NCBI GenBank assembly: GCA_964485795.1
Contig: CAZAJQ010000007.1
Coordinates: 3,880 to 67,879, forward strand
DNA length: 64,000 nt
Reading direction: 5' to 3'
Source of the DNA: an uncultured Gammaproteobacteria bacterium
GTDB taxonomy: Bacteria; Patescibacteriota; Patescibacteriia; VMEV01; CAZAJQ01
Position 1 is the stretch's first letter. Every line of letters starts with the position of its first letter. This document shows positions 21,701-50,193 of the stretch, in pieces. The notes below the pieces were generated by a model. That model did no database searches. It was given only the letters and a program-made list of their open reading frames with translations, and was not told where the DNA came from. The position numbers and the translations under genes are program-made.

Positions 21701-21779
21701 CAACCAAAGACACATCTTCGGATTTCGCCTCCCGAATAAGTAATTCATCGATCGATTTGTGTAATTCTATTTGGTTCAT
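18708..21779 (-). CDS. Large uncharacterised alpha-helical protein (1023 aa) with no recognisable catalytic motif, encoded immediately upstream of and translationally coupled to the SWIM protein
   Basis: Complete ORF that is Trp/Phe/Lys/Glu-rich (WLIWLWDNGF, WLANWTGAL). I could find no Walker A, HExxH, DEAD or obvious nuclease motif by eye. Both ends make 4-nt ATGA overlaps with the neighbouring genes. Confidence 0.7.
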   Translation of the reverse strand: MNQIELHKSIDELLIREAKSEDVSLVAKIISTNTDAKQYFFTKSDGKWLIWLWDNGFLDVIKEKSSNPTRYGYRTPELNYLVRMAETMPKEIVDIMLSVDTSKDNFNPEVIDQFLRICGSLPANELARMVEKIKTDNWVQSMSVFNEWGFEYEKMFESLKTNNDGKSLLMLADAVLAVKNKDDYKKNSNGYLFDNPFYFKDLSYTKVFEHLADIEEKDVAETLKLVCGKLAETVKLAEADDDGIFEYEDIFHLYDTDLFTLNLNQQRHLSDRENAKDLIACVKTLGERAFGVNCDKADHVNEQFEKIIVQIPESQSIWKLKLFILSLCPMAFREKLEEMFSRLFDVMKSGKHYHEIKSGTEYKKALKKTFGSLRGDYQRQYVVNVFEYFGKPNEDKKVESWYKRDGWQILSSVCKYLTEDEKEKCETVFGKRCDDKFEPETSIGHMRGGAVVSKGAISQEEFGKLEISVIVEKLKNEWQPATLAKQNSHEDFLNPLNAEGVGSQLRTDIAKRFGDYLAKAKLFFQREIIDEHYTYSFFRGVQEAIKADKTNLKAIDWDELIDSMLEVSESGKTKSFDAQKRDREMYDAWLANWTGALSSITDVLQELLNDNLGETILDFPKYREKLYLIHEFLLSYPDPELKDEELETAKSKTRLAGQKEEYLVTDPFTMAINSVRGRAFQSFVLFVYQDGKKFLNTDKIKIDAQVKLLYENVLKAEETRALMFMFGHYLPTFYFRDRDWISGLLPLIFPEESEKRYLYLASWEGYLANNLYEELFFDPKIQALYERGLSLVGDEDKTRRHFKEPDEGLAIHFALAFMFYCPKFGFDDPLFKKFWEKGKDVERQAEFVSFIGRMFVSGDNVQAKELLAKNAQCKQRLIDFWEWAVTNHDDGKIFADFGFWMNMDKKVFDSSWLAKMAKKTLEKTTGFLEWDYALVKSIAELAKVNPKDTFDIVRLHLLEGGIRGGKMRLPFMYDDEWVEALTILYSNQDTKNATYTLIDSLIREGGSTFWKFKSVIGENNKST

Positions 21780-22372
21780 AATGAGTTAGTTTTTTTTACA
21801 GCAAAATTCTGAATTTCAGACAATTTCGAAAAAAATGTTTTTACCCTCTCTATGAAAATGTCATCTTTATAACAATCTTCCAATTTCAAAGCATTATTTT
21901 TTAACAAAGCTATTAATGAGCCTTGAATAGTGGACGCATTATGATGATCTATTCCTGTAAAATATTGATAGTGTTGCCGAAATTCTTTAAAAACTTCGGA
22001 TTCATTTGAGGCTAATTTTTCACCTTCATTTTTATAAAACTTAACAAAATCCGATTCAAGTTGCCCTTCACTCCATTCATGAAATATTTCGCGCAATGAC
22101 GAGGCGCAATGTTCTTTCCATTCTGGATTATGTTGTTTGTTCGTTCCTATAGCAAAAATTGCACCTTGAAGCATTGTTACAGCATTGCGTGTGACTTGCT
22201 TCTTTCGGGTATCTCTTATTTTCTGATACAAATCATTAACGAATGTACCAAAATTTTCAACTTGTTCCTTGCTTATTCCAATCAAATATAAACCATCGGT
22301 GAAAGGGTCGGATATTGTTCCGTCCACCGATGTCCCTTTGCCTATTAATTCTTTATCAATAATTAGATCCAT
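21776..22372 (-). CDS. Hypothetical protein (198 aa), the first of three unknown genes downstream of the RM cassette
   Basis: Complete ORF. It starts 3 nt after the methyltransferase stop and overlaps the next gene by 4 nt. No recognisable domain. Confidence 0.6.
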   Translation of the reverse strand: MDLIIDKELIGKGTSVDGTISDPFTDGLYLIGISKEQVENFGTFVNDLYQKIRDTRKKQVTRNAVTMLQGAIFAIGTNKQHNPEWKEHCASSLREIFHEWSEGQLESDFVKFYKNEGEKLASNESEVFKEFRQHYQYFTGIDHHNASTIQGSLIALLKNNALKLEDCYKDDIFIERVKTFFSKLSEIQNFAVKKTNSL

Positions 22373-22375
22373 GTA

Positions 22376-23122
22376 TTAAACTTTTTGAAAAACGAAAATA
22401 TGCTCATGCATTATTAAAAGGAAATTCGACTCTCTCGATTTATTAACCCAAAAACCAGTTGCCTTACAATTAAACTGACGTTTGATTATATCCTCCTTCA
22501 AAGTAAAACCTGCCCCTAAAAACTTTTCCATAACTCGATATGCCAAAGGTTGATACATTTTATTCCTTCGCGTATCTCCCATTAGGATTGAGCAATAATT
22601 GCCTTTTTTCAGCACTCTGAATAACTCTTTTGCGACTTTATCCATTTCAGTAACAAACGACTCAATACTATGAATATTCGATAGATCCTCGTCGATTTTT
22701 CCTTCGCTGTACTTGATAATATCCGCATAAGGCGGATGAGTCAGAATAAAATCGATTGAATTATCCTGAAGGACTTTCAAATCTCGAGCATCGGCTTTTA
22801 AAACCTTCTGCCAAGACTGATTGTCGACATTAAAATTCAGACACTTTTTCGTCCGCTCAATAGCCAGATCGTTTATGTCTGAACAATAAAGATTGCGATT
22901 TAATAGCTTACATTCGATAGCGGTAGTTCCTCCGCCAATCATAGGATCAAGTAAAATATCGCCCTCCTTCGAGTATCGCAAAATTAAATTACGAACTACT
23001 TCTGGCGCCCAATTTCCCCTCCAATCAGATGTGTGAGTAGCCCAGTTGCCACGGCGAGGAAACGCCCATACCGATGTGCATTCAAGCTCAAAGTTATCTG
23101 GATTAAAATTGCTTGCTCCCAT
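22376..23122 (-). CDS. DNA methyltransferase (N6-adenine/N4-cytosine family), the second MTase of the GATC-type cassette. Its motif order I then IV is circularly permuted relative to DpnA.
   Basis: The AdoMet motif EGDILLDPMIGGGTTAIEC closely resembles the DpnA C-terminal EGDYILDPFVGSGTTG, but here it lies about 50 aa from the N-terminus. Motif IV LTHPPYADI follows about 70 aa later. Confidence 0.8.
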   Translation of the reverse strand: MGASNFNPDNFELECTSVWAFPRRGNWATHTSDWRGNWAPEVVRNLILRYSKEGDILLDPMIGGGTTAIECKLLNRNLYCSDINDLAIERTKKCLNFNVDNQSWQKVLKADARDLKVLQDNSIDFILTHPPYADIIKYSEGKIDEDLSNIHSIESFVTEMDKVAKELFRVLKKGNYCSILMGDTRRNKMYQPLAYRVMEKFLGAGFTLKEDIIKRQFNCKATGFWVNKSRESNFLLIMHEHIFVFQKV

Positions 23123-23124
23123 AG

Positions 23125-23979
23125 TTACCAGCTTAATTTATCAAGTACGCCGTCTTCTAGCATTTGAAGATTAAAAACATACTCATTATGGTTGTATGTT
23201 TCTTCAAGAGGACGCTTGGTTGTGTGCCATCCGAGACCATCAGTGACCCAAATAAAATCAATATTCTGCGCCTTCAATTCATCAAAAAGACTCTTGAATT
23301 CACCGCAAACAGCTTTAAGTTTTGATCCGCCTCCATTGTAAAAATTAGCTTCAAACAGTTTTATCTTCTTGTTTTTTGGATTGAATATTGCGAAGTCGAA
23401 ACTACGTTCAGATTTATCCACCCGAACCATTACTCCCCATTTATTTGAAATCGCCGTGGATCGAGCTTGTGCCAGATACTCAAGCCCATGCTTTGCACAA
23501 AATTCTTTAATAAATTGCTCAACAATTTCCTCCATCATGGTACCTCCGCGATTCTTTCTGCCATTGCTATCAAGTCCAACCTCAACGCCCATCACATAAT
23601 CAACGAGGTTTTTAACGCCGTCTTTTTTGAACAACTTCGCAAGGCCTGATTTTTCCAAAAACTCATAATACTTATCTGGAGTACTGTTACCTGAAGTAAA
23701 GTCGAACAGCTCAGTGGTTCTTTCTTGTTTATCAAATATTTCTAGCTTGCTTTCGCGAACTGCCAATAGCACTGGGAAGGCTTTCACGATGTCAGGATTT
23801 GAGGCAAATAACTTGTTAAATTCGGATTCCAGATTTTCCTTCCCGAGCAAGTAATTGAGTTTATTTAAAGTAATTTCCAGCTCTGATTTATTTTCAAAAA
23901 CCTTTTTCCAGTTTACGAAATAATCCCAAGTTTTAATTGAGCTCTTAAAAGTGCCGACTAACTGTTCGAAATTTTTCAT
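23125..23979 (-). CDS. Type II restriction endonuclease of the DpnII/MboI family (predicted GATC specificity)
   Basis: VDYVMGVEVGLDSNGRKNRGG, FEANFYNGGGSKL and IWVTDGLGW match remembered DpnII (VDYVTGVEVGMDTNGRKNRTG, VNFYSGSGSKL, MWITDGQGW). 284 aa. Confidence 0.8.
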   Translation of the reverse strand: MKNFEQLVGTFKSSIKTWDYFVNWKKVFENKSELEITLNKLNYLLGKENLESEFNKLFASNPDIVKAFPVLLAVRESKLEIFDKQERTTELFDFTSGNSTPDKYYEFLEKSGLAKLFKKDGVKNLVDYVMGVEVGLDSNGRKNRGGTMMEEIVEQFIKEFCAKHGLEYLAQARSTAISNKWGVMVRVDKSERSFDFAIFNPKNKKIKLFEANFYNGGGSKLKAVCGEFKSLFDELKAQNIDFIWVTDGLGWHTTKRPLEETYNHNEYVFNLQMLEDGVLDKLSW

Positions 23980-23984
23980 AAGTT

Positions 23985-24941
23985 TTAATAATTAGTAATA
24001 ACAACCTCCGAAATCTTTCCTCTCTTGCTCGCGTCAGAGTTTATCGCCCTTCCAGCTGAGACTTTGGAAAGTCTAATCCCGTCAAGGTTTGAATAAAGTT
24101 CGTTGATGAATGGAGTATCAGAATTGGACAGCATTACATAGCAACCTCTTGAAGCCAATTTAACGAACGTATCTCTAAGTTCTGTCTGCTCCTTTTCCAA
24201 AAATGATTCACTTGTGTAGGCAGTAAATGATGCGGTTCTGCTAACTGGGTAATAAGGCGGATCAAAATAAACAAAATCGCCTTTTTGAGCGTGCTTCAAT
24301 ACCTCCTTGTAGTCTTGCTTTTTAATTTCAACGGACTGTAAAGCATCAGATACTTTTCTTAAATTTTGCTCATCGCAAATAAGCGGATTATTGTATCGTC
24401 CAAAGGGAACGTTAAAACCACCCTTACTGTTTACTCGATACATACCATTGAAACATGTCCTGTTAAGGAAAATGAATCTTGATGCAATTTCAACATCAGT
24501 TAGTTGCGATACATCATAAGCGCGAACGCTCAAGAAATAATCCTTATCGATTTGATGTTTTTTCAGAGATAAAATTAAAGATTCAACGTCATTTTTTATG
24601 ACGTTATAAGTCGTCACCAATTCATGATTCATGTCTGATAAAACCGCATTGTCGGGTAGTAAATCGAAAAAGACTGCGCCACCACCAACGAACGGCTCAA
24701 AATATGTTGACTCTTGAGGATTGAAGCCGAAAGGTGGATATAATCCGAGTAGTCTGAATTGACTTAGTAATTGTCTTTTTCCACCGACCCACTTAACAAA
24801 AGGCTTTGGCTTAGACTGTATAATTTTTGAAACGTCCTCGATCAAATTATCTTTATTTGATAACAAGAAAACCTTGTATGCGTATATCGCATTTATATCA
24901 AAGGTTTTTGTCAGCTCTATAATGGCTTGTTCTTGTGTCAT
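23985..24941 (-). CDS. Dam-family (D12 class, alpha) N6-adenine DNA methyltransferase, DpnM-like
   Basis: KWVGGKRQLL, FEPFVGGGAVFF and FVYFDPPYYP motifs; 318 aa. Confidence 0.85.
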   Translation of the reverse strand: MTQEQAIIELTKTFDINAIYAYKVFLLSNKDNLIEDVSKIIQSKPKPFVKWVGGKRQLLSQFRLLGLYPPFGFNPQESTYFEPFVGGGAVFFDLLPDNAVLSDMNHELVTTYNVIKNDVESLILSLKKHQIDKDYFLSVRAYDVSQLTDVEIASRFIFLNRTCFNGMYRVNSKGGFNVPFGRYNNPLICDEQNLRKVSDALQSVEIKKQDYKEVLKHAQKGDFVYFDPPYYPVSRTASFTAYTSESFLEKEQTELRDTFVKLASRGCYVMLSNSDTPFINELYSNLDGIRLSKVSAGRAINSDASKRGKISEVVITNY

Positions 24942-24963
24942 GTTATTTGATCAAAATTTATTA

Positions 24964-25182
24964 TTAGACAGACTTTTTTATCAGTTTCAAAATATCTTCC
25001 TTGCGATAGCGTCTGTCTTGGCGCTCCCCGAAACGCACGGCTTTCAAGATTCCTTTTCTGTCCCACTGCCTCAAGGTGTTGGGGTGGCATTTTAAAATTT
25101 CCGACGCCTCTTTGAGGCTCAGAAGTTCGGGCAGTTCTTGGTCGTTTTGGTCTGAAGTATGCATTGATTTATCACTTAACAT
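24964..25182 (-). CDS. Excisionase/MerR-like helix-turn-helix DNA-binding protein (Xis-like)
   Basis: LSLKEASEILKCHPNTLRQWDRKGILKAVRFGERQDRRYRKEDI is the HTH_17/excisionase pattern. It is divergent from the phage-like + strand block. Confidence 0.65.
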   Translation of the reverse strand: MLSDKSMHTSDQNDQELPELLSLKEASEILKCHPNTLRQWDRKGILKAVRFGERQDRRYRKEDILKLIKKSV

Positions 25183-25245
25183 TTGATAACATTATTGTAC
25201 AGCAGAAAAAAAGAATCTGCAAACGAAAAATTACACGATATTAAC

Positions 25246-25854
25246 ATGACTATGACAACTGGAAATAAGGTTTTGGCTGTTATGCAAGCCATTGCCGAAA
25301 CCCTTGAAATTTCACCCAAGGGACAGCCAATGCAGATCGATCCGACGAAACTTGAGGAATCCCTTTCCAAGGTCGAAATAAAACAAATCTTTCAAAAACT
25401 TGCCGACGAGCAAGGTGTTGTTGAGTTACTCAGAACACCGTACTCCTTCGATGTTGTAATCGGCGAAGACCAAGACGTGTACAAATTCAACTTGACTGAT
25501 ATCGGCAAATTTCAAAAATATCTGGATGAGCTTAAACGCAAATCGTCCGACAAACAGGCAGACACGCGCACGCCCATGTTTCGCTTCAATCAGGGGGTTC
25601 TGTTCAGGGATTTTTGCGATACCATCCTCAAGATTGGCGGAGAAAACACATTCGAATACAGACTGATTCAAACTGCGCTGAGAACACCCGTTGGTGAGAA
25701 AATCGACACCCTAACTGATGAATTGGAAATGGACTGGCGCCAGCTTTATGATACTGCCAAGAGGCTTAACGATAAGATTAAATCGACTTTCAAGATAGCT
25801 GACTTTTTCATGATCGATTACCAAAACAAAAACATCAAAAAGACAATCGAATAG
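25246..25854 (+). CDS. Hypothetical phage/plasmid-like protein
   Basis: An ORF starting at 25183 is listed. The internal Met at 25246 leaves room for a divergent promoter. No domain recognised. Confidence 0.45.
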   Translation: MTMTTGNKVLAVMQAIAETLEISPKGQPMQIDPTKLEESLSKVEIKQIFQKLADEQGVVELLRTPYSFDVVIGEDQDVYKFNLTDIGKFQKYLDELKRKSSDKQADTRTPMFRFNQGVLFRDFCDTILKIGGENTFEYRLIQTALRTPVGEKIDTLTDELEMDWRQLYDTAKRLNDKIKSTFKIADFFMIDYQNKNIKKTIE

Positions 25855-25960
25855 TTGAGCGGAAACCGTTCAACGTTGAGTCAACGCCCAAAGAGTAGCC
25901 TGAAATCAAAGGCTATTTTTTTATGGCGCAAAAACGCCGTTTAACCATTAACAAAATTAT

Positions 25961-26251
25961 ATGACTCAACACACATTCGATCCGTCTTCCGAACCCGTTT
26001 ACGTTCCGCTGGACGACGCGGAAAATTATTTTTACAGCCACGACATCGGTTTGGTGGCTTATTTGCTTTGCCAAGATTTTGAACTGGTCGGCTTGGACAA
26101 AGCGATGCGAAACAAGGTGCTGTTCATTTTGAAAAAAGATGAAGCCATTGAAACCGAGATCAAGAAGTATTGGGACTTCAAATCGGCCGTGGACGCGCAG
26201 AGCTATTTCAACCAGATCAAACGGCTCAAAAACCAAATTTTCAGCTCTTAA
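25961..26251 (+). CDS. Hypothetical small protein (96 aa)
   Basis: Complete ORF, co-directional and tightly spaced with downstream genes. Confidence 0.4.
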   Translation: MTQHTFDPSSEPVYVPLDDAENYFYSHDIGLVAYLLCQDFELVGLDKAMRNKVLFILKKDEAIETEIKKYWDFKSAVDAQSYFNQIKRLKNQIFSS

Positions 26252-26260
26252 TCGAAAGCC

Positions 26261-26443
26261 ATGTTGTCGGACGAGCAAATCAAAAAATTTCAGACCCTCT
26301 ACAAAAACCGCTTTGGCAAAGAAATCTGCCGAGAGGATGCTTTGGATCAGGGCGTGAAACTCATCCGACTCATGGAATTGATTTATAAGCCGATGACCGA
26401 AAAGGACTTGGAGCTTTTACGGGCAAGACGGCAAACGACTTAA
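26261..26443 (+). CDS. Hypothetical small protein (60 aa)
   Basis: Complete ORF 10 nt after the previous stop and 28 nt before the primase gene. Confidence 0.35.
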   Translation: MLSDEQIKKFQTLYKNRFGKEICREDALDQGVKLIRLMELIYKPMTEKDLELLRARRQTT

Positions 26444-26470
26444 CGCATACAAATTTTAACCAAACATTAT

Positions 26471-28693
26471 ATGAACCGAGAATTTGAAACCATCGCTCCG
26501 AAAGAATATCTGACCTCAAAAGGAATCGCTTACAGGGAAAGCGGAAAAGAGCTGATCGTCTGCTGTCTTTTTAACGACTGTGACAAGGACAGTAAGGGCA
26601 ATGAGGCGCATTTGTACCTCAACGCCGAAACGGGACAATACGAATGCAAGAAATGTGGAGAAAGAGGCAATCTGATCACACTTGCCAAACGCTTGGGCGA
26701 TGATTTGCAAGATATTGCCATTAACAACGAAACGTTCAACCGCGTTTCGCAACGTAAGCCGAAATTTGACGCCCGTTCGGTCGAGTCGGCCGTTATGGCA
26801 CTTCCAGACCACATCCGCCTGTATCTCAAAAACAGGGGCGTTTGTGACGAGGTTATCGACCATCACAAGATCGGCTGGGGAGAATTTTACGGCAAACACT
26901 GGATTACCATACCGATCAAGGACGTTAACGGGGCTTATCGCTACTTCAAACTCAGACAAGACCCAAGCGAAGGCGATGAAAAGATCACTTACCCGAAAGG
27001 CGCTGAAGCTCAGATTTACGACTGGGAGAGTTTGAACGATTCAAGCGATCGGCTTGTCATTTGCGAAGGTGAAATGGACAGGCTCGCTTTGCTTTCCAAA
27101 AACATCAACGCCGTTACTTCAACACACGGCGCCATGACCTTCAAACAGGAATGGTGCGAAAGAATCAGTGATAACAAGAAAATTTATATCTGCTACGACA
27201 ATGACGAGGCTGGGAGAAAAGGCGCGGAAAGGGTGGCAAAAATATTGCACAACGGCAAGCGCGAAATTCAAATCATCACTTTACCGCCCGAGGTCGGCGA
27301 CAGCGGAGACATGACAGATTTTTTGGTAAAGCTAAACGGCAACCCAGACGACCTGTTCGGCAAATACGCCAAACCGTATCCCGAAAAAATCGACGTGTCT
27401 CAATTCAAACCTTTAACAACGAAAAACCTGCTTGAGATTCTCGGACTCACCATCAAGCAAGACGAGGAAAACAAGATTGCCACGTTCTTGTGTCAGCTTT
27501 CAGCCTTCACCGAAAACGCGCAATTCAACATCAGCTACAATGCGCCATCGTCCACGGGCAAAAGCTATATACCAACCGAAATAGCACGACTATTCCCAGA
27601 GGATGATGTTATGGAACTCGCATATTGCAGTCCGACCGCTTTTTTCCATGACGTGGGCGAATATGACAAAGAGATGAAGGGCTATCTGGTGGATCTGTCG
27701 CGCAAAATCCTTATCTTTCTCGATCAACCGCACAACGAGCTTTTGGCCAGATTGAGGCCGTTATTATCGCACGATAAAAAGCAAATCATGCTCAAGATAA
27801 CGGACAAATCGCAAAAGTTCGGACTCAAAACAAAAAACGTTTTACTGAGAGGTTATCCGTCCGTGATTTTCTGCACGGCAGGTTTGCGTATCGATGAACA
27901 GGAAGCCACTCGCTTCTTGCTTTTGAGTCCCGAAATCAATCAAGAGAAAATCAGGCAAGGCATTTTGGAGAGCATTAAAAAAGAGGTCGACTCCCAAAAT
28001 TATAAAAGCTGGCTTGATGAAAATCCTGAACGAAAACTGCTCAAAGAACGCATACGAGCCATCAAACAGGAAAACATCAAAGAAATAAAGTTATCGGGAG
28101 AGCAAAAAATCATCGAACGGTTTTTTAATCAGACCAAACTTCTTAAACCAAGACATCAGCGCGATATCAAACGATTGATATCACTCATCAAATCATTCGC
28201 GTTAATCAATCTTTGGTGGCGTGACCGCAAAGGCACGACCATTACGGCCAATGATGCGGACATCGAACAGGCTTTTGCAGTTTGGAATGTTATTGCGGCC
28301 AGTCAGGAACTCAATTTGCCGCCATACATTTACAACCTCTATCAAGAGGTTATTTTGCAGGCTTGGACGGACAAAAACGCTGTATTGCCAAAGGCGGAAA
28401 AGGTTGGATTGTCGAGACAAGAGGTTTTGCAAAAACATTTCGAAGTTTATGGCAGAATGCTCGACACCAACCAATTGCGCCAGCAGATATTGCCCATGTT
28501 GGAGACGGCAGGATTGATTGTTCAAGAACCAGACCAGAATGACAAAAGAAAAATCCTGATTTATCCGTCTTTACGAACCGACAAGCGGAAAAACAATAGT
28601 GTAACCGAGGGTGGGGTAAAAACAACGGACGACCGAAACGGAACGGATGATTTTAATCTTGAGACGAAAATCTCTAATGATTTCGGCATGTAA
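26471..28693 (+). CDS. Phage/plasmid-type DNA primase-helicase: CHC2-like zinc finger + TOPRIM + P-loop NTPase domain
   Basis: N-terminal Cys cluster CCLFNDCDKD..HLYLNAETGQYECKKCGERGNL. TOPRIM: LVICEGEMDRLAL ... IYICYDNDEAGRKGAERV. Variant Walker A: YNAPSSTGKSY. 740 aa. Confidence 0.8.
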   Translation: MNREFETIAPKEYLTSKGIAYRESGKELIVCCLFNDCDKDSKGNEAHLYLNAETGQYECKKCGERGNLITLAKRLGDDLQDIAINNETFNRVSQRKPKFDARSVESAVMALPDHIRLYLKNRGVCDEVIDHHKIGWGEFYGKHWITIPIKDVNGAYRYFKLRQDPSEGDEKITYPKGAEAQIYDWESLNDSSDRLVICEGEMDRLALLSKNINAVTSTHGAMTFKQEWCERISDNKKIYICYDNDEAGRKGAERVAKILHNGKREIQIITLPPEVGDSGDMTDFLVKLNGNPDDLFGKYAKPYPEKIDVSQFKPLTTKNLLEILGLTIKQDEENKIATFLCQLSAFTENAQFNISYNAPSSTGKSYIPTEIARLFPEDDVMELAYCSPTAFFHDVGEYDKEMKGYLVDLSRKILIFLDQPHNELLARLRPLLSHDKKQIMLKITDKSQKFGLKTKNVLLRGYPSVIFCTAGLRIDEQEATRFLLLSPEINQEKIRQGILESIKKEVDSQNYKSWLDENPERKLLKERIRAIKQENIKEIKLSGEQKIIERFFNQTKLLKPRHQRDIKRLISLIKSFALINLWWRDRKGTTITANDADIEQAFAVWNVIAASQELNLPPYIYNLYQEVILQAWTDKNAVLPKAEKVGLSRQEVLQKHFEVYGRMLDTNQLRQQILPMLETAGLIVQEPDQNDKRKILIYPSLRTDKRKNNSVTEGGVKTTDDRNGTDDFNLETKISNDFGM

Positions 28694-28702
28694 CAACTCA
28701 AC

Positions 28703-29293
28703 ATGACCAGAAAAATCGCGGAAATATCAAACGGCTTGAGCGTCTTCTTTCTGAAAAAACACGGCTTTCTGCCACAGGGAGACTCTTGGCGCAACGGCGG
28801 AATCAAATGGACGTGGGATGATTGGCAAAGCAATATCGGTTTTTCCGTGCAAACGCAGACAGACGACAATTCAGGGTATATTGAACTGAACTACACGGTG
28901 ACGGACGGGCAATCGAACGAAAAGACCGAGATGAAATACAAAATCAAACTTGTGACGACTTCCTGCAATTACGGCGGAAAGCGCTACTGGTTCGAATGTC
29001 CATTAACGACTAACGGCGAATATTGCGGACGCAGAGTCGGCGTCATTTACAGCGTCGGTAAGCTGTTCGGCTGTCGGTATTGCGCCAATGTAGCCTATCG
29101 CGCCCAATTTGAGAGCGGAAAATATCGTGTCGGATCAAGCACAAAACTCAACATTCAGGATGCTTTGACGGAAGCTACAACCCGTTATTACAACGGCAAG
29201 CCGACAAGGAAATTCAGGCGCTATTTAAGGCTTCGGGAAAGGTTGGAAATCATGTGGGCGAAGATAGCCGAAAAACTGGATATTATTCAATAA
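28703..29293 (+). CDS. Hypothetical protein with Cys4 zinc-ribbon-like motif
   Basis: CNYGGKRYWFECP...YCGRR...CRYCANV; 196 aa; lies between the primase and integrase genes. Confidence 0.5.
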   Translation: MTRKIAEISNGLSVFFLKKHGFLPQGDSWRNGGIKWTWDDWQSNIGFSVQTQTDDNSGYIELNYTVTDGQSNEKTEMKYKIKLVTTSCNYGGKRYWFECPLTTNGEYCGRRVGVIYSVGKLFGCRYCANVAYRAQFESGKYRVGSSTKLNIQDALTEATTRYYNGKPTRKFRRYLRLRERLEIMWAKIAEKLDIIQ

Positions 29294-29345
29294 AACGTAT
29301 ATGTTTGAAGTGTCAACCAAAGGCATATTTAAGCCAAAAATTACA

Positions 29346-30992
29346 ATGACCAAAGACACCGCAAAAATCAAATACTTTCTGTATTCCAGAAAGTCATCGG
29401 AGAGCGAGGATCGTCAGGTGCAATCCATTGACGATCAAATCAATCGCTTGAAAAGAATCGCCGATGATTTGAATATTGAGGTCGTTAAAATTTACACCGA
29501 AGCCAAGTCAGCCAAAAAGCCGAACAACCGACCGATATTCGACGAAATGGTGGAACGAATCGAAAAAGGCGACGCCGGCGGAATATTGTGCTGGCAAATC
29601 AACCGCCTTTCCAGAAATCCCATAGACAGCGGAAAATTGAGCTGGCTTCTGCAAAGAGGGGTTTTAAAATCAATTCAGACCATAGACCGCCAATATCTCC
29701 CTGAGGATAATGTCCTGTTGTTCAGCGTGGAAAGCGGTGTGGCCAACCAATACATTCTGGATTTGAGCAAAAACACCAAGCGAGGACTGCAAAGCAAACT
29801 GGAAAAGGGCTGGCAAAACGGAATCGCGCCTCTGGGCTATTTGAACGACAAAGAAAACAAAACCATCATCACAGACCCCGAACGGTTCAATCTCGTTCGT
29901 AAAATGTGGGACTTGATGCTTACAGGAAACTACACTCCTCCCAAAATTCTGGAAAAAGTAAATGAAGAATGGGGCTTTCGCACAAGAAAATTTAAAAGAA
30001 TGGGCGGTAATCCACTGTCGCGAAGCGGAATTTATAAAATTCTGACGAATCAATTTTACGCTGGAATCATCGAAGTTAACGGCCAGCAATACGAGGGGCA
30101 ACACGAAAAGATGATCACTTTTGAGGAATACGACAGGGCGCAGATGTTACTTGGCCGTGAGGGCAGACCGCGCCCGAAGACCCGAGCGTTCGCATTTACG
30201 GGAGCCATAAGATGCGGAGTTTGCGGGTGTTTGTACACCGCCGAAGTGAAAAAGAAACTCATTAAAAGCACGGGGCGGATAAAAGAATACACCTACTATC
30301 ACTGCACAAGAAAAACGATGAAAATCAAATGCGATCAACGGAAAAGCATACCTGTTGAGGATTTGGAAGTGGCCATTGAGCAAGAAATCGAGAAATACAC
30401 GATATTGCCAGAGTTTTTGGATTGGGCGTTGGAAGGTTTGAACAAAAAGAACGATACGGAAATAGAAGACCGCACCAAGATTTACGAGATGCAACACGGC
30501 AATTTGGCCAAAACCCAAAAAGAGCTGGATGAACTCACCAAGATGAGATACCGCCAGCTTATCGACGACGAAACCTTTATCAAGGAGAAAAACGCATTAC
30601 AAATTAAAATCGGCCAATGCAAAGAAAACTTGCGCACCACCGAAACAAGAGCTGAAAAATGGCTTGAGCTGACTGAGAAGACATTCAACTTTGCCACTTA
30701 CGCACGTTCTGCATTTTTAAAAGCCAGTGAAATGGGCAAACAAGGGTTAGAACTGAAGAAAGAAATTTTGCTCGCCATTGGAAAAACTCCGATAATAAGG
30801 GACGGAAAGCTCACCATCGAACCGAATGACTGGCTTGCGGAGATCGAAAAAGCGTATCCATCGCTTGAGAAAGAATACCTTAGGTTAGAACCGACGAAAA
30901 ACCGCTTGAATAAACGTGAAAACCGAGCTTTAGGCTCGGTTCATACACGTTGGCTCCGGGGGTGGGACTCGAACCCACGACCAATTGGTTAA
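29346..30992 (+). CDS. Large serine recombinase (serine integrase)
   Basis: The resolvase catalytic region KYFLYSRKSSESEDRQVQSIDDQ has the Y-x-R-x-S motif. It has a recombinase domain, a zinc ribbon CGVCGC...YYHCTRK and a long C-terminal coiled-coil. The last roughly 14 codons read through the tRNA-Asn 3' end (..GWDSNPRPIG), so the true stop may be earlier. Confidence 0.85.
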   Translation: MTKDTAKIKYFLYSRKSSESEDRQVQSIDDQINRLKRIADDLNIEVVKIYTEAKSAKKPNNRPIFDEMVERIEKGDAGGILCWQINRLSRNPIDSGKLSWLLQRGVLKSIQTIDRQYLPEDNVLLFSVESGVANQYILDLSKNTKRGLQSKLEKGWQNGIAPLGYLNDKENKTIITDPERFNLVRKMWDLMLTGNYTPPKILEKVNEEWGFRTRKFKRMGGNPLSRSGIYKILTNQFYAGIIEVNGQQYEGQHEKMITFEEYDRAQMLLGREGRPRPKTRAFAFTGAIRCGVCGCLYTAEVKKKLIKSTGRIKEYTYYHCTRKTMKIKCDQRKSIPVEDLEVAIEQEIEKYTILPEFLDWALEGLNKKNDTEIEDRTKIYEMQHGNLAKTQKELDELTKMRYRQLIDDETFIKEKNALQIKIGQCKENLRTTETRAEKWLELTEKTFNFATYARSAFLKASEMGKQGLELKKEILLAIGKTPIIRDGKLTIEPNDWLAEIEKAYPSLEKEYLRLEPTKNRLNKRENRALGSVHTRWLRGWDSNPRPIG

Positions 30993-31026
30993 CAGCCAAC
31001 TGCTCTACCGACTGAGCTACCCCGGA
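30951..31026 (-). tRNA. tRNA-Asn (anticodon GTT)
   Basis: Reverse complement: TCCGGGGTAGCTCAGTCGGTAGAGCAGTTGGCTGTTAACCAATTGGTCGTGGGTTCGAGTCCCACCCCCGGAGCCA. The 7-bp acceptor, D arm GCTC/GAGC, anticodon loop CTGTTAA, T arm GTGGG-TTCGAGT-CCCAC and encoded CCA all fold as a cloverleaf. Confidence 0.85.
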
Positions 31027-45612: not shown

Positions 45613-46281
45613 TCACTGCTCCTCGATCCACGAAAAACTTTCCAATATGAATTTTTCATCATCGCTTTCTTTGCCCTCTTCGAGAGGGATTTGAAAATGG
45701 ATCACATGTCCTTTCAAGCTTTCCAAAAAATAATGGCGCAATACTTTCTCTTCCCTCTTTGAGACCATTTTCAAATAGGTGTTTTTCCCAAACGCGACGC
45801 TTTCTTTGTTTTCATCAAAAACATACTTTTCCTTTTGGCTGTCAATATACAACTGCAATCCTTGGTCGTAATTTTTTTCAAATCGAATCACAAAAGAATT
45901 TCCGACGGCTCTGTCATCGCTTTTCTTGAGATTCTCTTTGGGTGAAATCAAAATCTCTTTATCAAGCTCGAAAATCGCGAAATCTTGCTGATATTCAAAT
46001 CGAAACAGCTGATCTTTGGACACATAACTTTTTTTGGAAGCGAGTTTTTTTTGTTCTTCCGACAATGCTTCTCCGAAATCCTCCAATCCTTGCTGCAGCG
46101 TACCGATCATGTCGGAAAAATCATCCTTGGCGATGGTGCCGGAAACCGATTCGCGAATTTTGAGGTCTTCAATGCCTTTCCTCAAAATCGTCACCCATCC
46201 GAAATACATGACCGCCAAAAAAAGAACGATAAATACCCAAAGCATCCATTTTCTTTCCGAACGAAAGTCCGACATAAACAA
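45613..46281 (-). CDS. Hypothetical membrane-anchored protein (222 aa)
   Basis: N-terminal TM WMLWVFIVLFLAVMYFGWV; the rest is charged and soluble. Confidence 0.5.
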   Translation of the reverse strand: MFMSDFRSERKWMLWVFIVLFLAVMYFGWVTILRKGIEDLKIRESVSGTIAKDDFSDMIGTLQQGLEDFGEALSEEQKKLASKKSYVSKDQLFRFEYQQDFAIFELDKEILISPKENLKKSDDRAVGNSFVIRFEKNYDQGLQLYIDSQKEKYVFDENKESVAFGKNTYLKMVSKREEKVLRHYFLESLKGHVIHFQIPLEEGKESDDEKFILESFSWIEEQ

Positions 46282-46300
46282 TGGAAAAACGAATACTCCC

Positions 46301-46891
46301 TTAGGAGGGATTTACAATAACGATTTTGGTTTCGTCGTTTTGCAAATCCTTTTTGACTATTTTGTATTTTGAAATTCTCTCTTGTCCCGCGCAGCCCATT
46401 TCTTTGCAGAATTGTTCCAATCCGGAACCGAAATCCTTGCCATTGGCAACCGGCATGATGACTCTGGGTTCCAATTCCTTTATCAAGGAAAGAACGTCCT
46501 TGACGGGAAGCGCCCCTTCTCCGTCGATCGGAACCATGAGTATGTCGATATTCCCCAAAGCTTCGAGCTGAGCGGTATGCAAATCATGCGAAAGTCTCCC
46601 GAGATACAAGAGCACCAATTCTTCGGCGTCAATCTTGTACATGACATTCGTATCTTCAGGGTTTTCTTCATTGTCCGATGCGATCCCATAGACAAACACG
46701 TCCATGAGCTCGTATTCTCCCGGCTGATCGATGTAAAAAGCGTCATTTTGTTTTTTTTCGGCGTCAAAAAAACCTCTTTTTGACGCTATCAAAATATTTC
46801 CCGATGTCTTTGCGTCCGCGACTTCAAGACGCACAGCGGCGGTTTTGTACTGAATATGAATGCCCGAACCTTTTTCGGCTGTGATGATCAT
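46301..46891 (-). CDS. MBL-fold-like protein, possibly degenerate (no HxHxDH motif seen)
   Basis: The C-terminal half LGNIDILMVPIDGEGALPVKDVLSLIKELEPRVIMPVANGK resembles UPF0173/metal-dependent hydrolase C-terminal strands. The N-terminal half lacks the His cluster. Confidence 0.4.
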   Translation of the reverse strand: MIITAEKGSGIHIQYKTAAVRLEVADAKTSGNILIASKRGFFDAEKKQNDAFYIDQPGEYELMDVFVYGIASDNEENPEDTNVMYKIDAEELVLLYLGRLSHDLHTAQLEALGNIDILMVPIDGEGALPVKDVLSLIKELEPRVIMPVANGKDFGSGLEQFCKEMGCAGQERISKYKIVKKDLQNDETKIVIVNPS

Positions 46892-47131
46892 AACTTGGCA
46901 AAATCAAAAAAAATTTTCTCGATTGAGAAACATTGTTGGGATCGTATCACAAAATTTCCTTCCGGTAAACCCCAGAAAAACCGCGTGGAGAAGACGGTTG
47001 AATACCCGTGGCATGTAAAATATGGGGAGACATGCACATTGCAGACGCATGAATGGATGTTGGGACATACAGGTTCAGGAACGGACATGGACGCATCGCT
47101 GGAAAGACTGGGAAGGACACAGAGGCCTCCC

Positions 47132-47824
47132 CTACGGGGGTTCATAACCCTCCAAAACCTCATCCATTTCTTCCAATGTTAAATCTTTGGAAAGAACGCT
47201 GAAACTTTCTTTCCATTCCACAATCGTCTGCTTCGCTTCATCGGCAATGCGCGGTTTTTTCTCCGCAATCTTTTGCAACTTTTCGACTCGACTCAACATC
47301 CGCTCTTTCAATGCGCGAAAATCTTCCACATACGCTTCATGAATTTTTGAAAACTCTCCGCCAATGCCAGCGGCGGCCTCGTCCAAAAGCTTTTTTTTGC
47401 AAGAAAATTCGGCTTCCCGTATGGCGAGAGTTTCATCAGATTGCAATACGGGGTGAAAAGCGTCTCGATGCGTAGTGAACTCTTCATGCGCCAATCTCTG
47501 ACGGCTCAAGGTATCCTCCTGAAATTTCAGCCAATATTCATACTTGGCATGGTACCGGCTGTCCAAATTTTGCCTCACGCAGGATTTCATTTTTGAAATG
47601 AAATTATCTTCCCAAATCCTCTCAAAAGCCTTGCGATACGGCCAGCTTTGCAGTCCAAATCGAAAAATCATGTCCGTAATTTCTTGCTGCGAGATATGCG
47701 GATCGGCGGCGACTTTCTCATACTCGCGTTTCATCGCCTCCTTCTCCGTTTCCGGAAACGTGGGAGGCAGGCTTTCGATAAGAAGCTTGATCTGGTCGAG
47801 GGAGTATTTGAAGGAGTGAGGCAT
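47132..47824 (-). CDS. Hypothetical protein (230 aa)
   Basis: Complete ORF with charged helical sequence. Confidence 0.5.
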   Translation of the reverse strand: MPHSFKYSLDQIKLLIESLPPTFPETEKEAMKREYEKVAADPHISQQEITDMIFRFGLQSWPYRKAFERIWEDNFISKMKSCVRQNLDSRYHAKYEYWLKFQEDTLSRQRLAHEEFTTHRDAFHPVLQSDETLAIREAEFSCKKKLLDEAAAGIGGEFSKIHEAYVEDFRALKERMLSRVEKLQKIAEKKPRIADEAKQTIVEWKESFSVLSKDLTLEEMDEVLEGYEPP

Positions 47825-47859
47825 AGAAATTTCATTTTGTATCAGTATACCCAGCTGAC

Positions 47860-48125
47860 GCTTTGGGGTGCAAATGAAGAACGGGTGAGGGCGGGCTTGC
47901 AGTATTCGGTAGCTCCCATGTTCACGGAACTCACCCCTCCGTCATCCTCCGCTACGCTCCGGACGACACCTCCCCTTGTGCAAGGGGAGGAAATCAGTGC
48001 AATATGTATTCTCCCCTTGGACAAGGGGAGATGCCCGAAGGGCAGAGGGGTGAGCTTCGTGAACATGGGAGCTTACCATGTCCGGAGTGGCGAGATAGTG
48101 TTCCGACGGTAAGCAGGGGAACCCA
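47860..48125. repeat. Copy B (longer, reverse-complemented) of the GC-rich nested-hairpin repeat element
   Basis: Its reverse complement contains the same CACCCCTCTGCCCTTCGGGCATCTCCCCTTGTCCAAGGGGAGAATA and CCTCCCCTTGTGCAAGGGGAGG hairpins as 1121-1330. It has an extra long arm: GCTCCCATGTTCACGAAGCTCACCCCTC pairs with GAGGGGTGAGTTCCGTGAACATGGGAGC at about 26/28 bp. Confidence 0.6.
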
Positions 48126-48381
48126 TTTTTTAATACCTTGAGAAAAGATATGCTTTTGACGTCAAGTGCGGATTCTATTACACCCTGAAATTCCGAGACC
48201 TTTGTATCGGAATTTTATTTTTTTAGAATATATGCTTCAATAGCTCGCGTGGATTTCAAGGAGCCACCTCACGGTGAGGAGAAAAAACAAATACAGCAAC
48301 AATACGAAATTCTTTTCAAGCAATTATCCTCCATCAAACCAATAAAAACCGCGGGCTCACAATTTCCAAAAAATAAGACCT

Positions 48382-48621
48382 TTATAGAGCCGCATAGGTA
48401 TGATCATTCCGACGCTCGATAATCAATATTCGGATTTCCAGTATGGTTGTGAATACGATTCGCATCTTCCCCCTGCGAACTCTCAATACATGCGGATATC
48501 CCTTGAGCTTTTTTATGTCGAGTCCGGTAAAGTCTTGCTTGAAAATCCTTTCTATAATCAAAATGAGCGCTTCCCGCTCATCTTTATTGAACTTTTTCAG
48601 CATTTTCTCGAGCGATGACAT
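48382..48621 (-). CDS. Type II toxin of the RelE/ParE family
   Basis: 79 aa. The LKGYPHVLRVRRGKMRIVFT..IIERRND pattern matches RelE/ParE. It lies 3 nt downstream of the antitoxin gene. Confidence 0.55.
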   Translation of the reverse strand: MSSLEKMLKKFNKDEREALILIIERIFKQDFTGLDIKKLKGYPHVLRVRRGKMRIVFTTILEIRILIIERRNDHTYAAL

Positions 48622-48624
48622 ATC

Positions 48625-48867
48625 TTATCGGCTCATCTTTTTGAGAGCCTGCAGTATTTTTTTTGCCGATATTCCCTGCGGATAAATCTCCGTAAAATCC
48701 ACCACGGTTTCCCACGTTTCGGTCTCAGTGATCGGTACGACTCGAAACATGGGTTTGTTTTTTTTATAAACGCTGAAACTCAATGTTTGTTTTGAAACAT
48801 TCTCCGCGTACTTCGTCAAATTTGTTCGAAAATTTTTCAGAGAAACGATGGTGTCCATAAATGGCAT
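48625..48867 (-). CDS. Phd/YefM-type antitoxin
   Basis: 80 aa. The N-terminus MPFMDTIVSLKNFRTNLTKYAENV.. matches the antitoxin family pattern. It is the operon partner of the RelE-like gene. Confidence 0.5.
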   Translation of the reverse strand: MPFMDTIVSLKNFRTNLTKYAENVSKQTLSFSVYKKNKPMFRVVPITETETWETVVDFTEIYPQGISAKKILQALKKMSR

Positions 48868-49015
48868 TCATATTTTATCCAAAGGTTATCTTTAGGTTAA
48901 CTCACTATCATGGCTACGTCAATCAAACCAGTAGAACCGCGGGCTCATCATTTTCATGAAAAAAAGACCATTCTTTTCAGAATGGTCTTAAGTGCTTAGA
49001 AAATGGTAATTTTGT

Positions 49016-49933
49016 CTACTCTCCACTTTCCAACTTCTCCTCTGTCTTATCAGAAGAGGAGTTACTCTTGTCAAGGAGCTTGTACCTATACAGCTTTTCC
49101 TCTTTATGAGAGGAGCTACTCTTGTAGAGATACGCATCCTCTCCGGTTTCAGGCGTATTGAAATTCGACTCCTGAAACTTTTTGAGCTGCTCCGTGTAAC
49201 TTACAGAAAAAAAATTTTGACTCGTAAAAAAATTATATTCAAGGTCAGAAGTATATCTTTGAGAAATACTTTCCAATTTCTTTTCTAAATCTTCCTTCGA
49301 AATATTTTCGAAGAAATAGAGAATTTTCTTTTTACTTGTTGGGTGTATGAAGGCAATAAAAAAGAATTTAAATTCTTCCACCCAATATACCTTTTTAGCA
49401 AATTGGCCTTGCTTTGCCGTTTTCCCTTGAGTCTCAGAATCATTTTTCAACTCGAATATCTGCGAAGACACATCACTTCTTGAGAACCCTGTAAATGCAA
49501 CCAAAAGCTTTCGATAATGAAGTATCTGCTTCTGTGCTTCTTGTTGCTTCGCGGGATCTTTTGATAGTAACAGTATGCGCTGACTTTGGATCTGCAGCTT
49601 GAGATTTCTTACTATGCGCTCCACTGAGCGCATCAACGATTCATGACTTTCATAATTTCGCATTCCATCAATGATTTCGGCAATATTGCCTTTATTAACG
49701 GCATCCATTAAAATTATTGCCATCTTATGTTTGCGTTCATACATTTCTTTTACCAATGGATGCATCTCCCCTGCCATCTCATCATCTCTTTTTCCCGCAG
49801 ATTTTGCCTCTGTCACTGGCCCAACTAATGCTTTTGAAGCCTCCTCTTTTTTCTCTTGTCCAAAAGAGATGATAGAAAACCCGCACATGGCGACAATAAA
49901 AGCACCGAGAACGAGAACTTTTTTGTGGTTCAT
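49016..49933 (-). CDS. Hypothetical secreted protein (305 aa)
   Basis: Signal peptide MNHKKVLVLGAFIVAMCGFSIISFGQ. Confidence 0.5.
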   Translation of the reverse strand: MNHKKVLVLGAFIVAMCGFSIISFGQEKKEEASKALVGPVTEAKSAGKRDDEMAGEMHPLVKEMYERKHKMAIILMDAVNKGNIAEIIDGMRNYESHESLMRSVERIVRNLKLQIQSQRILLLSKDPAKQQEAQKQILHYRKLLVAFTGFSRSDVSSQIFELKNDSETQGKTAKQGQFAKKVYWVEEFKFFFIAFIHPTSKKKILYFFENISKEDLEKKLESISQRYTSDLEYNFFTSQNFFSVSYTEQLKKFQESNFNTPETGEDAYLYKSSSSHKEEKLYRYKLLDKSNSSSDKTEEKLESGE

Positions 49934-50035
49934 TTTTTTGAACCTCCTTTTAAAATAACAAGCACTTTTTCTTGAGAATCACCACGATTCTCGATAAGAG
50001 ATTATTTGTATCTTAATTATGGGATTTTGTCAATA

Positions 50036-50064
50036 TTGCCATCCCTTGACTTTTTCGCTATAGT
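50036..50064 (+). promoter_or_regulatory. Candidate sigma-70 promoter for rpsA (TTGCCA-N17-TATAGT)
   Basis: The -35 TTGCCA is at 50036-50041 and the -10 TATAGT is at 50059-50064, with a 17-nt spacer. It lies about 130 nt upstream of the rpsA ATG. Confidence 0.3.
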
Positions 50065-50193
50065 TCGAGCACATGCAGGATTTATATCCGTTTCCGCCTC
50101 CTGCCGGAAACACCCATACTCCACTGCGGGAAGGGATATAACCGTACATACACACAAAAAGACGGTTTTCACAATACCTCTTTTTTATTTTTT

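Follow-up and report, generated by a model that had tools for sequence, protein, structure and literature searches.

A palindromic interspersed repeat of putative BoxC/PIT design in a Parcubacteria genome and a related hairpin module in phage contigs

Introduction

PIT elements (Hoyne et al. 2000) are identical to the BoxC repeat of E. coli and were re-studied under the name TMECO by Holder et al. (2015; PMC4666352). These elements often comprise two motifs in inverted configuration, carry small deletions that keep the hairpin, have neither promoter nor terminator activity and are tied to variable loci (PMC4666352). G/C-rich motifs of the intrastrand-triplex kind are plentiful in Proteobacteria and cyanobacteria; single strands of the TMECO type adopt a triplex in vitro, with none detectable in vivo, and purine-motif triplexes do not form in RNA (PMC4666352). 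Here, we describe a GC-rich, nested-hairpin element that occurs twice in a 64,000-nt stretch of DNA, hereafter the window, from a bacterium of the Parcubacteria, a lineage of the candidate phyla radiation (CPR; assembly GCA_964485795.1, contig CAZAJQ010000007.1, positions 3,880 to 67,879). Copy A lies at 1150–1319 and copy B at approximately 47895–48114. Judged from its sequence, the element appears to be a lineage-restricted, previously unrecorded variant of the palindromic interspersed repeats of BoxC/PIT design. On balance, we favour the view that it is a non-coding interspersed repeat acting at the level of DNA, and that it is neither an RNA gene nor part of a toxin–antitoxin system.

The layout of the element is the same as that of PIT/BoxC/TMECO: a homopyrimidine arm is joined by a loop to a homopurine arm, and beyond a second loop comes a purine block that is the mirror of the purine arm. 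This likeness suggests a structural kinship. The element further resembles these repeats in being G/C-rich and intergenic, in occurring on either strand and as inverted pairs, in suffering deletions that keep the hairpins, in its presence in variable regions and in the lack of a consensus among the functions of flanking genes. The two differ in consensus, and the TMECO/BoxC pattern CCCTCNCCC-N3-6-GGGNGAGGG-N3-GGGNGAGGG had no match in the window. Moreover, the second loop of PIT/BoxC/TMECO is 1–6 nt long, whereas here it is usually a hairpin of 13–29 nt. The present element, moreover, sets its pair of motifs within a longer palindrome that has additional arms and a side hairpin, resides in a CPR host and was seen in two copies, as compared to tens to more than 100 for PIT/BoxC/TMECO.

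Other families of bacterial repeats are related in general form. ERIC/IRU and Correia-type repeats are imperfect palindromes of 100–200 bp that are intergenic, often co-transcribed and found in either orientation; Correia elements come with TA target duplications and with promoter or IHF sites that are functional. The element shares with both groups the type of palindrome, the position and the occurrence of size variants, which are produced at fixed positions by internal deletion or insertion. It has no sequence similarity to either, and Correia-type TA duplications, promoters or IHF sites were not found in it. REP/REPIN sequences comprise two inverted, hairpin-forming units and a spacer that fold into a larger hairpin; they are non-autonomous, extragenic and mobilized by RAYT transposases. 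The element likewise has inverted hairpin units around a spacer, a joint larger hairpin and an extragenic location, but its units are larger and modular, and no RAYT gene was seen in the window.

Architecture of the element

Each copy consists of two inverted copies of a single module, which together form an imperfect palindrome of 170–220 bp. The module has three parts. The first is a hairpin whose 5′ arm is all pyrimidine (CTCCCCTT) and whose 3′ arm is all purine (AAGGGGAG). The second is another loop, usually itself a small hairpin, and the third is a G-tract, GAGGGGTG, that mirrors the purine arm. Beyond the modules, the Parcubacteria version carries approximately 21 more arm bases and a GCTTACC...GGTAAGC side hairpin.

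The four pyrimidine/purine hairpins of the two copies, (C/T)CTCCCCTT / AAGGGGAG(G/A), have stems of 9 bp each and lie at 1187–1208, 1224–1245, 47969–47990 and 48010–48031. All four therefore have the homopyrimidine and homopurine arms, of at least 6–8 nt, that characterize an intrastrand-triplex repeat. In all four modules, GAGGGGTG follows the purine arm on the 3′ side of its own strand, and provides six exact triads and one T*A-T triad out of eight. The third block is thus purine-rich and mirror-symmetric in the sense required for G*G-C, A*A-T and T*A-T triads. By its pyrimidine arm, its purine arm and the mirrored purine block that the same strand carries, the module falls within the definition of an intrastrand (fold-back) triplex motif. 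It departs from the characterized motifs in the length of the second loop, which is 13 nt, as a hairpin, in two modules, 29 nt in a third and 5–6 nt in the right half of copy A; three of the four modules thus exceed the limits of 1–6 nt used in ITxF and 0–10 nt used by Hoyne et al., both as given in PMC4666352. The nested hairpins of copy B, hp1 and hp2, have the motif form CTCCCCTTG-NN-CAAGGGGAG, and the window contains the 20-nt hairpin motif four times as compared to an expectation of zero.

Copy B is the more complete of the two copies and has the following parts, from left to right.

47895–47913, plus strand: left remnant GCTTGCAGTATTCGGTAGC, a putative, degenerate left-hand side hairpin whose alignment to the intact GCTTACC...GGTAAGC hairpin is confined to its ends; probably the left boundary of copy B
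47911–47939, plus strand: arm L, AGCTCCCATGTTCACGGAACTCACCCCTC, whose inner end CACCCCTC (47932–47939) complements the G-tract with which the minus-strand module ends
47940–47968, plus strand: hairpin X, 29 nt, imperfect and weaker, in the second-loop position of the minus-strand module; missing from copy A
47969–47990, plus strand: hp1, CCTCCCCTTGTGCAAGGGGAGG, composed of CCTCCCCTT-GTGC-AAGGGGAGG, a pyrimidine arm and a purine arm
47991–48009, plus strand: central spacer, 19 nt, AT-rich, separating the two modules
48010–48031, plus strand: hp2, TCTCCCCTTGGACAAGGGGAGA, composed of TCTCCCCTT-GGAC-AAGGGGAGA, the first hairpin (P1) of the plus-strand module
48032–48044, plus strand: P2, TGCCCGAAGGGCA, a 13-nt hairpin (TGCCC-GAA-GGGCA) in the second-loop position
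48045–48073, plus strand: arm R, GAGGGGTGAGCTTCGTGAACATGGGAGCT
48071–48114, plus strand: side (or 'tail') hairpin, 44 nt, GCTTACC...GGTAAGC, homologous to 1277–1319 of copy A; right boundary

In copy B, the plus-strand module (48010–48052) is composed of hp2, P2 and GAGGGGTG. The last of these occupies the first 8 nt of arm R, where it mirrors the purine arm AAGGGGAG and so supplies the third block. The minus-strand module runs from 47990 down to 47932, and is composed of hp1, which serves as its P1 and is identical in sequence to 1224–1245 of copy A, hairpin X and the complement of CACCCCTC. The two G-tracts and their complements together make up the inner end of a long helix. Its arms, 47911–47939 and 48045–48073, are a 29-nt inverted repeat that is complementary at 27 of 29 positions (93%) across an interval of 105 nt, and the two are paired in the minimum-free-energy folds of copy B as RNA and as DNA. 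The predicted RNA folds have energies of −137.7 kcal/mol for the plus strand and −128.5 kcal/mol for the minus strand, with z-scores of −8.1 and −8.3 against shuffled sequences, and the DNA fold has a z-score of −9.6. The folding tools model Watson–Crick and G-U pairs only. The GC content of the element is 57–60%, as compared to 44.6% for the window. As regards the comparison with REP/REPIN sequences, GGTAGC at the outer end of arm L does contain GTAG, although only as a single instance.

These data agree with the original prediction, made from the letters of the window, of a repeated GC-rich, nested-hairpin element whose second copy has a nearly perfect long-range helix; the strings quoted in that prediction are the minus-strand versions. 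The prediction also had the helix closed by an outer pairing. In copy B, the sequences concerned, GCTTACC (48071–48077) and GGTAAGC (48108–48114), instead form the side hairpin 3′ of the helix, and closure of the whole element is found only in copy A. We also considered whether the grammar of the module is repeated at a larger scale across copy B, as AGCTCCC...GGGAGCT, the side hairpin and AGCAGGGG. We discarded this idea, since no G-tract follows the side hairpin in copy A.

Relationship between the two copies

Copy A has the same parts as copy B minus most of arm L, one side hairpin and hairpin X. Its parts are as follows.

1150–1173, plus strand: left terminus, GCTTACCGT and a 15-nt remnant of arm L, CGAAATTCACCCCTC (1159–1173)
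1174–1208, minus strand: minus-strand module, with P2 at 1174–1186 and the hairpin at 1187–1208; its GAGGGGTG tail is the complement of 1166–1173
1224–1259, plus strand: plus-strand module, with the hairpin at 1224–1245, a second loop of 5–6 nt (TGGCCG) and the third block GGAGGGGTG at 1251–1259
1252–1279, plus strand: arm R
1277–1319, plus strand: side hairpin, GCTTACC...GGTAAGC

The ends of copy A, GCTTACCG (at 1150) and CGGTAAGC (1312–1319), pair across the whole element. Its right half, AAGGGGAGG-TGGCC-GGAGGGGTG, has the short-loop layout of the classical intrastrand-triplex motifs.

The reverse complement of copy B aligns to copy A over 93 nt with 85% identity in blastn, and this match includes a block of 47 nt without a single difference (1165–1211 of copy A and the reverse complement of 48007–48053 of copy B). 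The minus-strand module of copy A sits inside this block. A nearly identical core shared with copy A, as originally predicted, is thus borne out. The description of the copies as inverted holds only in part: the reverse-complement match is real, but the direct orientation also aligns, over 148 nt with 74% identity. In end-to-end alignments, the mean column identity is 74% for the inverted and 78% for the direct orientation. Copy A aligns to copy B in both orientations because the element is a quasi-palindrome. The direct orientation is the better fit for arm R and the side hairpin, as supported by three informative positions in the arm and by the intactness of the side hairpin, and the inverted orientation fits the module of hp2, P2 and GAGGGGTG perfectly, through the 47-nt block. 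This mixed pattern is more simply explained by a two-fold symmetric ancestor that would have decayed differently on each side. The supposed ancestor comprised a side hairpin, an arm, a small hairpin, a hairpin and a spacer, together with their mirror partners. Alternatively, an inversion of the interior between the arms may have taken place in one lineage.

The differences between the copies are deletions of whole helices, and no compensatory substitutions were seen in the alignment. Relative to copy B, copy A lacks 47 nt at the left, corresponding to the interior of the side hairpin and the outer arm, and approximately 26 nt elsewhere, which removes hairpin X. One of the deletions is edged by CG(R)AA microhomology, as read from the alignment, which fits replication slippage. 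These deletions support the interpretation of copy A as a deletion derivative of a B-like form, in line with its original description as a degraded copy. It had also been described as keeping only the 3′ arm of the helix, which is incorrect insofar as 15 nt of the 5′ arm (1159–1173) are retained.

The module in phage contigs

The inner module was also found in viral sequences. The pattern CAAGGGGAG-NN-GCCC-NNN-GGGC-N-GAGGGG matched two phage contigs in IMG/VR, twice in each. In these contigs, the bases CTCCCCTT and AT, which the pattern leaves unspecified, are also identical to those of the window, and the loops differ. The stems of three contigs (L015, L016 and L041) are the same as in the window, CTCCCCTT..AAGGGGAG-AT-GCCC..GGGC-A-GAGGGG, and the P2 hairpin recurs in them with other loops. 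A looser pattern, CTCCCCTT-N1-6-AAGGGGAG-N9-25-GAGGGG, yielded 31 IMG/VR loci with GC contents of 38–71%. The stem sequence of the second hairpin varies between these loci, and its pairing is kept: a stem of at least 4 bp is present in 21 of 32 distinct segments, and the longest stem averages 4.75 in these segments as compared to 3.37 in shuffles.

The phage units occur singly or in tandem, direct arrays, mostly in genomes of 55–71% GC, and in both orientations relative to the flanking open reading frames (ORFs). They follow the same grammar of hairpin, second hairpin and G-tract as the element, without the inverted pairs and long arms. Contig L015 encodes a siphovirus structural module according to PHROGs, and has units in several intergenic gaps, including one directly after the gene for the major tail protein. 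The gaps in L015 (2173–7313) and L016 hold one to three GC-rich units each, on the strand opposite to the genes, with the form GGCTCyCCC-loop-GGGrGAGCT-G-hairpin-AC-TGAGrGGG and with no Rfam match. To our knowledge, the GC-rich arrays of hairpin modules in IMG/VR phage contigs, such as those of L015, L016 and L049, have not been described. Three viral matches (L028, L039 and L042) are near-canonical TMECO-like sequences. In a phage of 40% GC (L046, 4211–4246; also L033, L035 and L048), the module lies in-frame inside an 861-residue, portal-MuF-like ORF, in what looks like a linker; by analogy, this arrangement is reminiscent of the Rickettsia palindromic elements inserted in coding regions.

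The mirror relationship between the purine arm and the tract extends to units with other sequences. For example, GGGAGAG is followed by GAGAGGG, GGGGGAG by GAGGGGG, GAGGGGGG by GGGGGAG and AAGGGGGGA by AGGGGGGTT. Among units with other P1 sequences, the mirror outperforms the direct copy by 39 to 17, and the observed mean was reached in none of 2000 permutations. We also gathered CTCCCCTT..AAGGGGAG hairpins without any condition on their flanks. In this unbiased sample of 203 strand instances, the 40 nt on the 3′ side of the purine arm contain GAGGGG in 31 instances and those on the 5′ side in two. By contrast, the direct copy, GGGGAG, has no asymmetry (13 and 12). As another description of this relationship, we considered Watson–Crick and G-U pairs between the G-tract and the pyrimidine arm. 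When worked by hand, such pairing is feasible for CCCCUU:GAGGGG and fails for units such as CTCTCCC/GAGAGGG. The mirror relationship is therefore the more general description.

Searches for known families and further copies

With Rfam (15) at the gathering threshold, no family was found on the element, and only two tRNAs were found in the whole window. At E ≤ 10 on 47700–48400, the matches were limited to chance-level, microRNA-like ones (E ≥ 0.026), the best of which scored 25.5 bits against a microRNA model whose threshold is 90. ARAGORN similarly reported only tRNA-Asn and tRNA-Ser in the window, both outside the element. Consensus scans for σ70-like promoters and intrinsic terminators detected none inside either copy.

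A third copy was found neither by blastn in the window nor in the approximately 4 kb before its start and 8.5 kb past its end, such that approximately 76 kb of the genome hold two copies. The double-hairpin pattern had no match in the GTDB representative genomes, and in JGI metagenomes it matched only four unrelated pairs of generic CCCCCTTGAACAAGGGGG hairpins. The arm pattern, GAGGGGTGNGYTYCGTGAACAT, had one chance match in a Pirellula coding region among the GTDB representatives and none in IMG/VR, and the side-hairpin pattern had five chance matches, all in coding regions. Copy B did not match INPHARED phages or PLSDB plasmids in blastn. Accordingly, no full-length relative was found in GTDB representatives, JGI metagenomes, IMG/VR, INPHARED or PLSDB. 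The original prediction had made a functional family depend on additional copies and on conservation of structure; no further full-length copy was detected, but the inner module recurs with a covarying second hairpin. One metagenome contig (Ga0315271_10431906; L002, 843–960) carries a tandem array of a CCCCTTGTGCAAGGGG hairpin and a T-run with a period of approximately 34–36 nt, which decays along the array. Apart from the generic hairpin, the array is unrelated to the element.

The element was also compared with TIGR-Tas guide-RNA arrays, which are recognized by edge and loop repeats of 8–12 nt that alternate and have spacers of 9 nt, or by arrays of box C/D stem-loops, adjoining a tas gene with a Nop domain. 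This candidate was rejected: the architecture is unlike, and no Nop domain was matched by Pfam in the flanking ORFs scanned (45613–49933 and 1341–2451).

Genomic context

Both copies lie between co-directional genes of the minus strand, and each ends 66–70 nt upstream of the next start codon. The asymmetric interior is oriented oppositely with respect to transcription in A and B. Copy A is flanked by a gene for a 151-residue pilin-like protein with an N_methyl motif (1341–1796) and by an ORF of 1256 codons that starts at 1083. The NCBI annotation places a 79-residue hypothetical protein, HY453_01120, at 1095–1334, which amounts to copy A in translation. Among 5.8 billion proteins, it matched only itself, and the ORFs that cross the element, including this one, lack homologues and are almost certainly spurious predictions.

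Copy B lies 268 nt after the stop codon of a 79-codon ORF and 70 nt before a 230-codon ORFan. It had been placed immediately downstream of a RelE/ParE–Phd operon, which the 268-nt gap contradicts. The identity of the gene pair is itself only weakly supported by its sequence matches: the 80-residue antitoxin-like protein matches PhdYeFM with an E-value of 2.4e-4, below the Pfam cut-off, and the 79-residue toxin-like protein has no Pfam or NCBIfam match, its closest resemblance being to a RelE3 chain (3bpq_B) with an E-value of 0.059. Nor do the data support a functional link to toxin–antitoxin or pilin loci: the contexts of A and B have nothing in common, and the copies are in opposite orientations relative to the genes.

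Copy B forms part of an islet, as follows.

46892–50193: islet of 3.3 kb between a Lactamase_B_3 gene and an S1 gene, comprising the 230-codon ORFan, copy B, the Phd/RelE-like pair and a 305-codon ORFan

In the closest relative (L014; GyrA 72% identical), synteny is kept, and the Lactamase_B_3 and S1 genes are 360 nt apart, with neither islet nor element. Because this gap is 3.3 kb in the window, copy B belongs to a lineage-specific islet. The 230-residue islet protein had no homologue among 5.8 billion proteins. Approximately 20 nt before the ATG of its gene, a sequence of the form TTGCAC-N18-TATACT was noted by eye at 47866–47835 of the minus strand, where it adjoins the left side of copy B. 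This sequence could be the promoter of the 230-codon gene, although it is absent from the list of the consensus scan. If it is truly a promoter, 47860–47894, the first 35 nt of the interval originally assigned to the element, are flank. The 305-codon ORFan (49016–49933, minus strand) encodes a signal-peptide-like N-terminus and matches an IS630 transposase model with an E-value of 3e-4 and 20 bits (cut-off of 100), which is probably a low-complexity artefact.

Independent assemblies

Parts of both copies are present in independent Logan assemblies of two runs (SRR12113383 and SRR12113384), in which they are identical to the window. Contigs from both runs end inside both copies. Most of these ends lie at exactly 30 nt inside the 47-nt block that A and B have in common, as expected of a k=31 assembly graph. 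The positions of these breaks led us to reject inversion heterogeneity as their cause. Two contigs, L005 and L006, one from each run, terminate at 47961, within hairpin X, a break for which the A/B repeat provides no explanation. It may indicate that the genome contains one more copy, or that a strain variant or other heterogeneity is present at this spot. The flanking proteins assign the window to a metagenome-assembled genome of the Parcubacteria group, GCA_016204025.1 (locus tag HY453). This other assembly of the same genome differs in contiguity: its contigs JACQLO010000004 and JACQLO010000007 end or start at 39255/39256 and 61080/61081 of the window, which is continuous and without N at both junctions.

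Interpretation and alternatives

Conservation of the element follows the design of intrastrand-triplex-type DNA repeats in both orientations, and does not look like that of a strand-specific RNA. A possible course of events is as follows. While replication or transcription leaves it single-stranded, or in the form of RNA, the element would fold into the 29-bp stem with its nested hairpins, and fold-back triplexes could form locally. Such structures would stall polymerases, with slippage, template switching and recombination as the expected consequences. These processes would account for the clean deletions of whole helices between A and B, for the partial inversion of the interior relative to the outer arm, for the presence of copy B in a variable islet and, through recent copying or gene conversion, for the 47-nt identical block. 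Any effect on neighbouring genes would at most be an orientation-independent attenuation of read-through or a protection of the 3′ end of the upstream mRNA, as has been proposed for REP elements.

Several observations weigh against the interpretation of the element as a DNA-level repeat of this type. Mobility, boundaries and the conservation of the arms and side hairpin have to be judged from only two copies, no target-site duplication was seen at either one, and the window encodes no transposase able to move the element. Each G-tract has a perfect Watson–Crick partner in the opposite arm, so the 29-bp duplex would out-compete a triplex, and the triplex layout may be no more than a design that was inherited. 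At 13–29 nt, the second loop is longer than that of any characterized intrastrand triplex, purine-motif triplexes do not form in RNA, and even TMECO has no stable triplex in vivo (PMC4666352). In the first viral set, the P1 and tail sequences were fixed by the search pattern, and the mirror signal may derive in part from related subfamilies of units instead of independent events. Finally, the 47-nt block could reflect selection on the module for some function.

The last point can be taken further. The inner module may represent an undescribed, widespread class of the fold-back-triplex type, in which the second loop is a covarying hairpin and which is common to phages of varied GC content and a CPR bacterium. 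We hold this proposal tentatively, as a possibility and not a finding, because the samples were selected by pattern. Under the same proposal, and with no greater confidence, the Parcubacteria element would be an inverted-pair member of the class, and its 47-nt block would be the mark of selection for a function that depends on structure, for instance the pausing of polymerases, attenuation inside operons, or a signal for protein binding or packaging. Modules with a hairpin in the loop would have been missed by triplex finders, since these allow loops of 10 nt or less.

We regard it as unlikely that the element is a miniature inverted-repeat transposable element or a REPIN-like element, the copies of which would be insertions mobilized by a transposase encoded elsewhere. 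The element has the size (170–220 bp), intergenic location, GC-richness, long inverted arms and occurrence in both orientations expected of such elements, copy B is in an accessory islet, and terminal inverted repeats could be provided by the 29-nt arms of B or by the pairing of GCTTACCG and CGGTAAGC in A. The break at 47961 in two Logan runs hints at a further copy or heterogeneity. Nevertheless, the boundaries of A and B, uncertain with two copies and degenerate at the left end of B, have no convincing direct repeat. The window encodes no transposase: the one recombinase in it, of the large serine type, is encoded at tRNA-Asn at a distance of 17 kb, and the IS630 match of the 305-codon ORFan scores 20 bits against a cut-off of 100. 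No other copy is present in approximately 76 kb, and the single match of the arm pattern in GTDB and IMG/VR was the chance one in a coding region.

A structured RNA acting in cis or in trans, such as a stabilizer or attenuator in the 3′ untranslated region or a small RNA, transcribed with the upstream gene, is improbable. Its attractions are the very stable folds predicted for both strands, the co-directional genes, the 66–70 nt between each copy and the next start codon, the perfect conservation of the 47-nt block and the related modules in several gaps of the structural operon of L015, including that after the major tail protein gene. Yet the two copies are oppositely oriented with respect to transcription, the phage modules occur in both orientations, and neither an Rfam match, a U-tract terminator nor a promoter was found in the element. 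Moreover, A and B differ by deletions of helices and not by compensatory changes, and E. coli PIT/BoxC has no terminator or promoter activity (PMC4666352).

It is highly improbable that the element is an inverton, in which the 29-nt arms would be recombination sites between which the 105-nt interior flips, possibly in connection with variation of the pilin-like genes near copy A. This idea draws on the interior module that matches in inverted orientation while arm R and the side hairpin match directly, and on the location of copy A between two pilin-like genes. The same pattern is obtained from a symmetric ancestor with independent deletions, the interior contains no promoter, there is no invertase nearby, and most of the left arm of copy A is deleted. 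In addition, the NCBI assembly (for copy A) and the two Logan assemblies agree in orientation wherever they overlap the element, and the contigs break 30 nt inside the 47-nt repeat, not at the junction of arm and interior. A recombination site of the accessory islet, either an integron attC-like site behind a toxin–antitoxin cassette or the remnant of an attachment site, is hardly credible: the element is an imperfect palindrome downstream of a toxin–antitoxin-like cassette in a lineage-specific insertion, but attC sites have a palindrome of the form R″/L″...L′/R′ with RYYYAAC and GTTRRRY cores and occur in cassette arrays, usually near intI, and here the cores were not seen by eye (no attC model or pattern search was run), the window has neither an integron or tyrosine integrase nor an array of cassettes each with a palindrome, copy A is in an unrelated context that is not behind a cassette, and the element is away from the borders of the islet.

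For annotation, the element is best treated as a repeat and structure-prone region, not as a gene and not as a companion of the toxin–antitoxin-like pair. It breaks short-read assemblies, as is evident in the Logan contigs of two runs. The BoxC/PIT-style design, seen so far mainly in Proteobacteria and cyanobacteria, would extend to a reduced CPR genome and many phage contigs, and in the CPR and phage versions a covarying hairpin replaces the second loop. If the fold-back triplex reading is true, the catalogue of plasticity-linked, non-B-DNA repeats would be enlarged, and searches for them could follow a simple sequence rule. Should the reading be wrong, the element would still be a useful marker of variable loci in this lineage.

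Other features of the window

The 47 kb between the two copies hold gyrA, a gene for an rpoD-like σ70, dnaG, cysS and ABC transporter genes. These housekeeping genes, and a separate mobile island among them, agree with the original statement that the copies are not the ends of one transposon. The island (17971–31026) adjoins tRNA-Asn (30951–31026) and encodes a D12 Dam-type methylase, a DpnII endonuclease, an N6_N4 methylase and a 740-residue Toprim/primase-like protein. It also encodes a large serine recombinase of 563 residues (29301–30992), the ORF of which overlaps the tRNA-Asn gene.

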